This document shows, one piece after another, positions 1,159-1,338 of a stretch of DNA of 7,970 nucleotides. The translations under genes were made by a program, and so were the position numbers. Below the pieces are notes generated by a model. The model was not told where the DNA came from. It saw nothing but the letters and a program-made list of their open reading frames with translations, and made no database searches. The stretch is from IMG/VR virus record IMGVR_UViG_2534682078_000012, one strand, 5' to 3'. Every line of letters starts with the position of its first letter. The first letter of the stretch is position 1. Origin of the DNA: a virus (lineage: Duplodnaviria; Heunggongvirae; Uroviricota; Caudoviricetes).

Positions 1159-1338
1159 ATGACATTTCTGAACCAGTTAATGCTGTACTTCTGTACGGTG
1201 GTCTGTGTGCTGTATCTCCTTTCGGGTGGGTACAGGGCCATGCGTGACTTCTGGCGCAGACAGATTGACAAAAGGGCCGCTGAGAAAATCAGCGCCAGTC
1301 AGTCAGCCGGAAGCAAACCCGAAGAGCCGCTCATTTAG
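1159..1338 (+). CDS. Small hypothetical membrane protein (59 aa), not in the supplied ORF track
   Basis: ATG 1159 to TAG 1336-1338, translated by hand: MTFLNQLMLYFCTVVCVLYLLSGGYRAMRDFWRRQIDKRAAEKISASQSAGSKPEEPLI. One hydrophobic segment (residues ~3-24) followed by a basic tail; purine-rich GGAAAG 7-12 nt upstream. It replaces the implausible Cys-rich N-terminal part of track ORF 1205..1651, which is in another frame. Confidence 0.4.
   Translation: MTFLNQLMLYFCTVVCVLYLLSGGYRAMRDFWRRQIDKRAAEKISASQSAGSKPEEPLI

Follow-up and report, generated by a model that had tools for sequence, protein, structure and literature searches.

A 59-residue DUF1378 membrane protein gene near the lysis genes of a Shiga-toxin-type prophage and its possible role as a lysis accessory

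Introduction

Which of two overlapping reading frames is the gene in the segment between nanS-p and the holin gene of a Shiga toxin (Stx)-type prophage, and what might its product do? The question is raised by a 7,970-nucleotide (nt) stretch of viral DNA (Caudoviricetes; IMG/VR record IMGVR_UViG_2534682078_000012), hereafter called the window, which corresponds to the late region of an Stx-type lambdoid Escherichia coli prophage. A first-pass annotation, made from the letters alone, had proposed that an unlisted ATG-to-TAG frame at 1159-1338, preceded by a purine-rich ribosome-binding region, encodes one hydrophobic helix plus a basic tail. It had further proposed that this frame explains the region better than a GTG-initiated open reading frame (ORF) of 148 codons, and that it would be co-expressed with the lysis genes. 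We show here that the 59-codon frame is a genuine gene of the catalogued DUF1378 family, hence already known and not new. We then discuss whether its product could be an accessory of the phage lysis module. This idea is drawn from gene context only, and we regard it as evenly balanced between right and wrong.

Results

The 59-residue frame is a gene of the DUF1378 family

On the plus strand, the frame runs intact from ATG 1159 to TAG 1336-1338 and encodes the 59-residue product MTFLNQLMLYFCTVVCVLYLLSGGYRAMRDFWRRQIDKRAAEKISASQSAGSKPEEPLI. The frame lies exactly where the first-pass annotation had placed it, and the purine-rich region ahead of it contains a Shine-Dalgarno-like GGAAAG element (Table 1). 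An element of the form GG[ATG][AG]AG is conserved at the same distance from the ATG across 38 distinct upstream sequences, and AGGAG-like elements precede the gene in distant homologues.

The product matches the Pfam DUF1378 profile (PF07125) with E 2e-39 and 134 bits, for a gathering cut-off of 25, residues 1-59 being aligned on model positions 1-59 of 59. The PHROG 494 profile, placed by PHROG in the category 'unknown function', also matches it over 1-59 of 59 (E 9.6e-41). In RefSeq, these 180 nt carry the label 'DUF1378 family protein' (WP_000143458.1); next come a 273-nt 'DUF826 domain-containing protein' and the holin. In Stx phage phi24B, the same 59-residue DUF1378 gene is vb_24B_23. 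From an alignment of 31 diverse members, we drew a family signature consisting of an N-terminal transmembrane (TM) helix, L9/Y10/F11, V15, L20, G23-G24-[YW]25, I28-R29 and K35. All of these features are present in the window protein.

The 59-codon frame is intact in 169 of the 170 loci fetched, which gave 43 distinct protein sequences, and its pairwise ratio of nonsynonymous to synonymous substitutions (dN/dS) is 0.16-0.28. On the same nucleotides, the pooled ratio of nonsynonymous to synonymous polymorphism (pN/pS) takes the value 0.31 for the 59-codon frame, compared with 1.0 for the +1 and 2.25 for the +2 frame. This pattern indicates purifying selection on the 59-codon frame and not on the overlapping one. 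The GTG ORF (1205-1651, 148 codons) is present mechanically and corresponds to the +1 frame of the 59-codon gene. With pN/pS at 1.0 in that frame, protein-level selection does not act on its first 58 codons.

The true gene within the GTG ORF is a 90-codon DUF826 gene. Indeed, the Pfam DUF826 profile (PF05696; E 9.6e-30) begins at residue 1 of the 90-residue form, that is at residue 59 of the 148-residue form, which corresponds to ATG 1379. The DUF826 product is acidic, helical in its N-terminal half and Pro/Glu-rich in its tail. Upstream of the DUF826 ATG, the frame is open over 66, 52, 27 or 5 codons according to the lineage, and relative to the DUF1378 frame it occupies +1 or +2, again depending on the lineage. 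Since both the length of the extension and the relative frame vary, no conserved DUF1378-DUF826 fusion product is possible, and a programmed frameshift joining the two was rejected on these grounds.

It could still be argued that the 59-codon frame is untranslated and that the real product is the 148-residue protein, or a frameshift fusion of both frames. Old records do carry the long frame. The 1999 record of phage 933W (AF125520) lists it as L0106 (25307-25753) and not the 59-codon gene, orf43 of VT2-Sakai (AP000363; 139 residues, 24801-25220) is the same wrong frame, and both appear in the phi24B record, as vb_24B_23 (short) and vb_24B_24 (long). In addition, PHROG 8301 (139 residues) and database proteins P0126 and P0131 join DUF1378-like to DUF826-like sequence. 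However, these joined forms read as single frameshifts in rare sequences, most genera have DUF1378 alone, and the polymorphism ratios, the unconserved extension and the start of the DUF826 profile all speak for two separate genes. We therefore consider the long-frame explanation hardly credible, and L0106 and orf43 are historical over-extensions of the 90-codon DUF826 gene. Overall, the preference of the first-pass annotation for the shorter frame is upheld, and this frame is conserved in relatives. Its description as unlisted is accurate for the annotation track that it used and for the old records of 933W and VT2-Sakai; it does not apply to Pfam, PHROGs, RefSeq or phi24B. As a sequence feature, DUF1378 thus changes nothing, except that the old Stx-phage records carrying L0106 or orf43 can be corrected.

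DUF1378 is a small family of enterobacterial phages

The protein of phage 933W is 100% identical to that of the window and is encoded at the same position. In all, 174 phage records, 933W included, carry the 59-residue protein at 99% identity or more. The locus, taken as the surrounding 700 nt, occurs in 1,031 of 5,426 complete E. coli genomes (about one fifth), with a median of 3 matching places per positive genome. The family is small; a profile search of 1.84 billion representative proteins gave only 42 matches (representatives at 50% identity), all belonging to one family. The hosts are Enterobacterales, in which the gene is found in phages and prophages of Escherichia, Shigella, Klebsiella, Raoultella, Kosakonia, Kluyvera, Pantoea, Lonsdalea, Rosenbergiella and Cedecea. 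Proteins P0150, P0147 and P0137 are absent from IMG/VR, and P0216 is absent from cultured phages.

The gene was also found in two phages deposited as Stenotrophomonas phages, BUCT708 and BUCT709. Their records (OM816835, locus L002, 2721-4153; also OM816834) show an enterobacterial-type lysis cassette with a phage 21-type (S21-type) holin and an endolysin 76% identical to R of the window. Close relatives are present in 25 IMG/VR loci, so that the host assignment, or a recent transfer of the module, may deserve a look.

Searches with DUF1378 in other collections were negative. NCBIfam and PADLOC gave nothing meaningful, with no PADLOC defence model matching any of four family members at E 0.1, and the PDB sequence search returned only chance-level matches to TRAP-gamma (E 0.03).

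The product is predicted to be a bitopic membrane protein

The 59-residue protein has one hydrophobic segment, residues 3-25, with a mean Kyte-Doolittle value of about 2.0. Its N-terminal flank is uncharged and the next 15 residues contain 6 Lys or Arg, in agreement with the helix and basic tail read by the first-pass annotation. After an N-terminus of 2 uncharged residues, the layout is that of a hydrophobic TM helix (22 residues, at about 3-25) ending in a conserved S-G-G-Y, a basic juxtamembrane helix (26-44) and a variable tail (45-59). The values of pN/pS for these three regions are 0.32, 0.40 and 0.87, respectively, the tail being nearly free to vary. Conservation column by column likewise singles out the TM and juxtamembrane parts. 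AlphaFold2 models a single helix over residues 3-50 followed by a disordered tail, with low-to-moderate confidence (mean predicted local distance difference test score, pLDDT, of 62).

The same organization is seen across the family. Members start with 2-7 residues lacking positive charge (one member has a single Arg) followed by a strongly hydrophobic helix, and they share [SA]-G-G-[YW], which hardly varies, followed by I/V-R-x-[YFW]-x-x-x-K. In long forms (79-91 residues), the cytoplasmic part is extended into an Ala/Lys/Glu-rich helix. All 25 diverse members considered show the same charge bias, with 0-1 Lys or Arg ahead of the helix and 3-6 among the 15 residues that follow. From the positive-inside rule, this bias predicts an N-out/C-in orientation, which answers the call for a topology prediction made in the first-pass annotation. 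We strongly infer from these sequence features that DUF1378 is a bitopic inner-membrane protein with its N-terminus out and its C-terminus in. A search for one conserved helix face that could serve as a docking surface showed no clear 100-degree periodicity in the conservation.

DUF1378 has generic holin-like features (phage origin, small size, a TM helix and a charged C-terminal end), which are not sufficient for membership of a holin class. Indeed, no holin family of Pfam or PHROGs matches the 59-residue protein, whereas the neighbouring S gene product is matched. No lipobox was found either. There is no basic n-region, the residues preceding Cys12 (L-Y-F-C) are unfit, and the protein does not read as an outer-membrane spanin (o-spanin) or other lipoprotein. 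About half of the family members have Ser, Asn or Ala in place of Cys12.

DUF1378 recurs beside lysis genes of different kinds

Neighbourhoods of DUF1378 were classified from IMG/VR, species-representative genomes and metagenome assemblies. In eleven architectures, the gene lies within or directly after lysis genes. The E. coli arrangement (about 90 IMG/VR loci) is NanS-p, DUF1378, DUF826, S21-type holin, R, in some cases an Ant-like gene, then Rz/Rz1. In a second arrangement, represented by 25 loci and the BUCT708/709 records, an S21-type holin, a signal-arrest-release (SAR) lysozyme and a 176-residue Rz with its Rz1 precede DUF1378, which is followed by a tail gene. Kosakonia shows this order with other downstream genes. 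In Rosenbergiella, two holin-like genes, a GH19 endolysin and Rz/Rz1 are followed by DUF1378, HNH and terS. A Pantoea-type phage has an 89-residue holin, a SAR lysozyme and lambda-type Rz/Rz1 ahead of DUF1378. Two further orders contain DUF7940, namely muramidase, DUF7940, Rz, DUF1378, and, in Klebsiella, holin_3_3, lysozyme, DUF7940, Rz-like, DUF1378. Two Lonsdalea prophages, counted as two architectures, carry unrelated holins and different endolysins with the same Rz and an identical DUF1378 (P0177). A metagenomic contig with a T7-like terminase (L175, 2775-4414) has a candidate unimolecular spanin (u-spanin), an S21-type holin and a lysozyme before DUF1378. In the last architecture, an isolated pair of inner-membrane spanin (i-spanin) and o-spanin genes precedes DUF1378 among head genes, far from any holin.

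The candidate u-spanin of L175 was read from the sequence; it has 138 residues, a lipobox (LVGC) and a C-terminal TM helix, and no Pfam match. In the same contig, DUF1378 is followed by a 76-residue acidic, Pro/Ala/Glu-rich protein whose composition recalls DUF826.

Ten cassettes were compared with each other, the isolated spanin pair being left out. Eight of the nine with a called holin show no detectable similarity to the other holin groups. The ten contain three endolysin types and two i-spanin families, plus the candidate u-spanin. Overall, DUF1378 directly follows three unrelated types of spanin gene. In many loci, its ATG overlaps the Rz stop codon (ATGA). Its GC content equals that of the neighbouring lysis genes and Shine-Dalgarno-like elements precede it. 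Terminator-like hairpins follow DUF1378 in several loci; one is clear in L176, and those of L002 and L180 have shorter T-runs.

Other genes are found near these cassettes. In several genera other than Escherichia, Rha or KilA-N genes follow DUF1378. Short Tad2-like (anti-Thoeris) fragments lie after DUF1378 in Klebsiella prophages L177 and L178 (4302-4574), and an AcrIF11-like gene lies just upstream of the holin in L190 (1584-2045). Anti-defence cargo gathers at the borders of these lysis cassettes.

In E. coli, DUF1378 and DUF826 form a unit bracketed by hairpins

The features of the window are collected in Table 1. The position of the 59-codon gene in the late region between nanS-p and the holin gene is as the first-pass annotation had it, and the holin is of the S21 type. 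No sigma-70 promoter is predicted in the window ahead of the DUF1378 gene.

Table 1. Features of the window, with the main evidence for each
Feature	Position	Strand	Basis or remark
nanS-p, 3' part (sialate O-acetylesterase)	19..1026	+	cut by the window start; Pfam DUF6645 C-terminal domain; RefSeq 'SASA family carbohydrate esterase'; L0105 in 933W
Candidate small RNA gene	1026..1140	-	close ahead of the DUF1378 start; antisense to the spacer between nanS-p and DUF1378
Shine-Dalgarno-like GGAAAG	1148..1153	+	5 nt ahead of ATG 1159
DUF1378-family gene, 59 residues	1159..1338	+	ORF, Pfam, PHROG, RefSeq, dN/dS, charge bias and hydrophobicity, AlphaFold2
DUF826 gene, 90 residues	1379..1651	+	within the 148-codon GTG ORF; Pfam PF05696, RefSeq 273 nt
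Terminator-type hairpin and U5	1661..1694	+	between DUF826 stop and S start; fold
S, class II (phage 21-type) holin, 71 residues	1728..1943	+	Pfam Phage_holin_2_1, E 7e-33; PHROG holin
R, lysozyme-type endolysin	1948..2481	+	hydrophobic N-terminal (SAR-like) segment; Pfam Phage_lysozyme; sequence
Ant-like gene	2755-3324		P22_AR_N and ORF11CD3 domains; between R and Rz
Rz (i-spanin)	3481..3945	+	Pfam Phage_lysis, E 1.6e-49
Rz1 (o-spanin)	3701-3886	+	within Rz in another frame; Pfam Rz1, E 3e-22
bor	3977-4270	-	opposite strand; terminase genes after

Two conserved hairpins bracket the DUF1378-DUF826 pair, which in the E. coli arrangement forms a two-gene unit. Downstream, compensatory changes preserve the stem of the hairpin between DUF826 and S across 19 distinct intergenic sequences, one lineage being without the U-run. 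Given this hairpin, co-expression of DUF1378 and DUF826 with S depends on Q-mediated antitermination. The co-expression with the lysis genes put forward in the first-pass annotation is therefore plausible under Q antitermination, and the conserved hairpin would uncouple the genes otherwise.

Upstream, a hairpin at 1034-1064 lies just after the nanS-p stop codon (-22.6 kcal/mol, z -5.6). Because an A-run precedes it and no U-run follows, it corresponds to a canonical terminator of the minus strand, and terminator prediction also called it as such. A candidate small RNA (sRNA) of about 75 nt may end there. On the minus strand, its parts are a perfect -35 box TTGACA (1140-1135), a 17-nt spacer, a -10 box TAAAAC (1117-1112), the hairpin (1064-1034) and a U7 run (1034-1028). 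Among 38 distinct nanS-p-DUF1378 spacers, the conserved pieces are the hairpin, with compensatory changes, a -10-like TTTTTA and a -35-like GTCAA.

The Rfam family Esr41 (RF02676) gives a weak full-length match at 1026-1102 on the minus strand, with 25.6 bits, below the gathering threshold of 102. The candidate would be at most a distant relative of Esr41, with which it shares UUUUCUCCAU and the terminator. A 2026 preprint (10.64898/2026.05.13.724894) places the PasA and PasC sRNAs between a sialic-acid esterase gene and the holin-lysozyme operon. By its location, the candidate could be one of these sRNAs. An sRNA target site obtained in silico has also been reported in the literature as lying 'upstream of S and vb_24B_23'.

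Some further observations concern the rest of the window. The loop of a small hairpin at 1326-1342, GCCGCTCATTTAGCGGC (-10 kcal/mol, z -2.2), contains the stop codon of DUF1378. The S product begins with MYQMEK (1728-1739) and so has possible starts at Met1 and Met4, the dual-start arrangement of the holin/antiholin pair of phage 21 (S21 71/68). The Ant-like gene splits the lysis cassette, and only part of the related loci have this insertion. Finally, the portal gene is truncated. An 82-residue N-terminal P22_portal fragment (7172-7420) is followed by an IS3-family (rve) transposase gene on the minus strand (7423-7941). Particle formation is probably defective in this prophage.

Discussion

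DUF1378 as a possible accessory of lysis

The recurrent placement of DUF1378 by lysis genes, especially spanin genes, suggests that the protein may be a late-made inner-membrane accessory of the phage lysis module, a reading that we hold at even strength for and against. DUF1378 would be made late, alongside holin, endolysin and spanins, and would insert into the inner membrane N-out/C-in with its basic helix on the cytoplasmic face. Because its helix is conserved among variable phage-encoded neighbours, its target would be common to all hosts and cassettes. It would act through such a component or by self-association, and not through one holin family. In one version, DUF1378 would modulate membrane energisation, for instance by self-association, and thereby shift the trigger point of any holin. 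In another, it would be a partner or regulator of the spanin step, spanin genes being the type that it follows most faithfully. In either case, the protein would adjust when, or how efficiently, the envelope is disrupted, and lysis would be possible without it.

A bolder form of this reading would make DUF1378 a fifth, hitherto unrecognised class among the lysis-cassette proteins of temperate Enterobacterales phages, facing the cytoplasm, independent of holin and endolysin type and acting as spanin partner or energisation modulator. We put this form forward tentatively and find it somewhat doubtful. If it were true, DUF1378 would influence the timing of toxin and virion release in Stx phages; the protein is identical across those of medical importance. 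Lysis timing governs phage yield and Shiga-toxin release, so that a factor shifting it would be relevant both to phage biology and to the pathogenesis of enterohaemorrhagic E. coli.

Several facts weigh against an accessory role in lysis. The well-studied phages lambda, 21 and P22 are not known to carry such a gene, and yet they lyse their hosts. Unrelated cargo such as lambda bor classically lands at the 3' end of the lysis operon, so that adjacency is possible without function. In the window, the conserved terminator hairpin separates DUF1378 from S. Some loci are not lysis-adjacent at all: DUF1378 lies between tail fibre and Dam genes in 8 loci, stands alone between portal and MuF genes with opposite-strand flanks, and follows a Rha gene at a contig end. 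In 25 loci, the NanS-p, DUF1378, DUF826 trio has no lysis genes within 4 kb. Moreover, many of the loci with DUF1378 after Rz share a single Rz family (47-62% identity) and may represent one inherited module, which brings the independent placements in lysis clusters to about 4-5 and not 11. Finally, no functional data on DUF1378 or DUF826 were found in the literature, where one paper names the family, as unknown only.

Other explanations of the gene

The main competitor of the lysis-accessory reading is that DUF1378 is cargo (a 'moron') unrelated to lysis, tolerated at operon ends and serving, for example, superinfection exclusion or some benefit to the infected cell or the lysogen. The loci next to Dam and between portal and MuF genes agree with this idea, as does the frequent position of DUF1378 as last gene ahead of a terminator-like hairpin. 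So does the anti-defence company that it keeps, with Tad2-like fragments after it in Klebsiella and the AcrIF11-like gene nearby in L190. A small size and a single membrane pass are typical of exclusion factors (HK97 gp15, T4 Imm), which also counts for cargo. However, two features argue for late expression, namely the start codon overlapping the Rz stop (ATGA) and the absence of space for a promoter of its own. Its GC content is that of the lysis genes, and no promoter is predicted in the window. The defence models give no match for the four members searched, and chance would hardly place the gene again and again beside at least three spanin types. We judge the cargo explanation rather unlikely. 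Even less probable, in our view, is that DUF1378 works with its E. coli neighbours, either as a membrane partner or anchor of DUF826 or within a NanS-p/DUF1378/DUF826 module. This would account for the constancy of the trio in E. coli prophages, also where no lysis genes are near, and for the hairpins that bound DUF1378 and DUF826; the DUF826-like acidic protein that follows DUF1378 in the u-spanin cassette goes in the same direction. Outside Escherichia, however, DUF1378 occurs without NanS-p or DUF826. In locus L145, too, DUF826 was not matched at the threshold applied, but DUF1378 is followed there by a divergent DUF826-like ORF.

DUF1378 could also be imagined as a dedicated antiholin or other partner of the S21-type pinholin, since it has the generic shape of a holin and adjoins S21-type holins in E. 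coli, in the BUCT709-type, Kosakonia and metagenomic T7-like cassettes. Yet the family accompanies holins without S21 similarity (holin_3_1, holin_3_3, DUF7940-containing cassettes and a cassette with two holins and GH19), and the identical protein of the two Lonsdalea prophages stands behind two unrelated holins and two different endolysins. In addition, S21 already has its own antiholin form, made by the dual-start mechanism known from phage 21 biology. An antiholin specific for the S21 pinholin was rejected on context, as DUF1378 does not co-vary with one holin (eight holin groups without detectable similarity to each other occur in ten cassettes), and the whole explanation, antiholin or other partner, is left with a very small chance.

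Comparison with known systems

Set against its catalogued counterparts (Pfam DUF1378, PHROG 494, WP_000143458.1 and vb_24B_23), the window gene belongs to the same family, matches from end to end and shows nothing different. Some lysis cassettes contain a second holin-like or antiholin membrane protein, as exemplified by LydB of phage P1, Gp5 of mycobacteriophage Ms6 and XhlA of PBSX. Like these proteins, DUF1378 is small, late and charged at its C-terminus, has one TM helix, and is found in clusters that already have a holin. In contrast, it is not tied to a single holin family and is not known to share sequence similarity with them.

With the i-spanins Rz and P2 LysB, DUF1378 has in common an adjacent and often translationally coupled gene, and its long forms consist of a TM helix and an Ala/Lys/Glu-rich helix. 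These long forms match LysB only very weakly, at E 0.019 and 15 bits for a cut-off of 93, far below the family threshold. The N-terminus is basic in Rz, which also has a coiled coil in the periplasm, whereas DUF1378 has an uncharged N-terminus and a basic C-terminal flank, which predicts the opposite orientation. The possibility that DUF1378 is itself an i-spanin was rejected because N-out/C-in is predicted in all 25 members and a real Rz is present in each cassette. In many phages, DUF1378 fills the slot just after Rz/Rz1, as lambda Bor and other cargo genes do. Bor, however, is a lipoprotein encoded on the opposite strand with its own promoter. The DUF1378 gene has the orientation of its lysis neighbours and frequently overlaps the Rz stop codon, and its product lacks a lipobox.

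A last comparison is with N-out/C-in mini-proteins with a basic tail, such as the Pf3 coat protein, and with type I toxins of the Hok and TisB class. DUF1378 shares with them its size, its single helix, its short uncharged N-terminus and its basic C-terminal flank, and the idea of a membrane-depolarising peptide comes from this resemblance. There is no homology with these proteins, and the nearby antisense RNA candidate overlaps neither the DUF1378 frame nor its ribosome-binding site.

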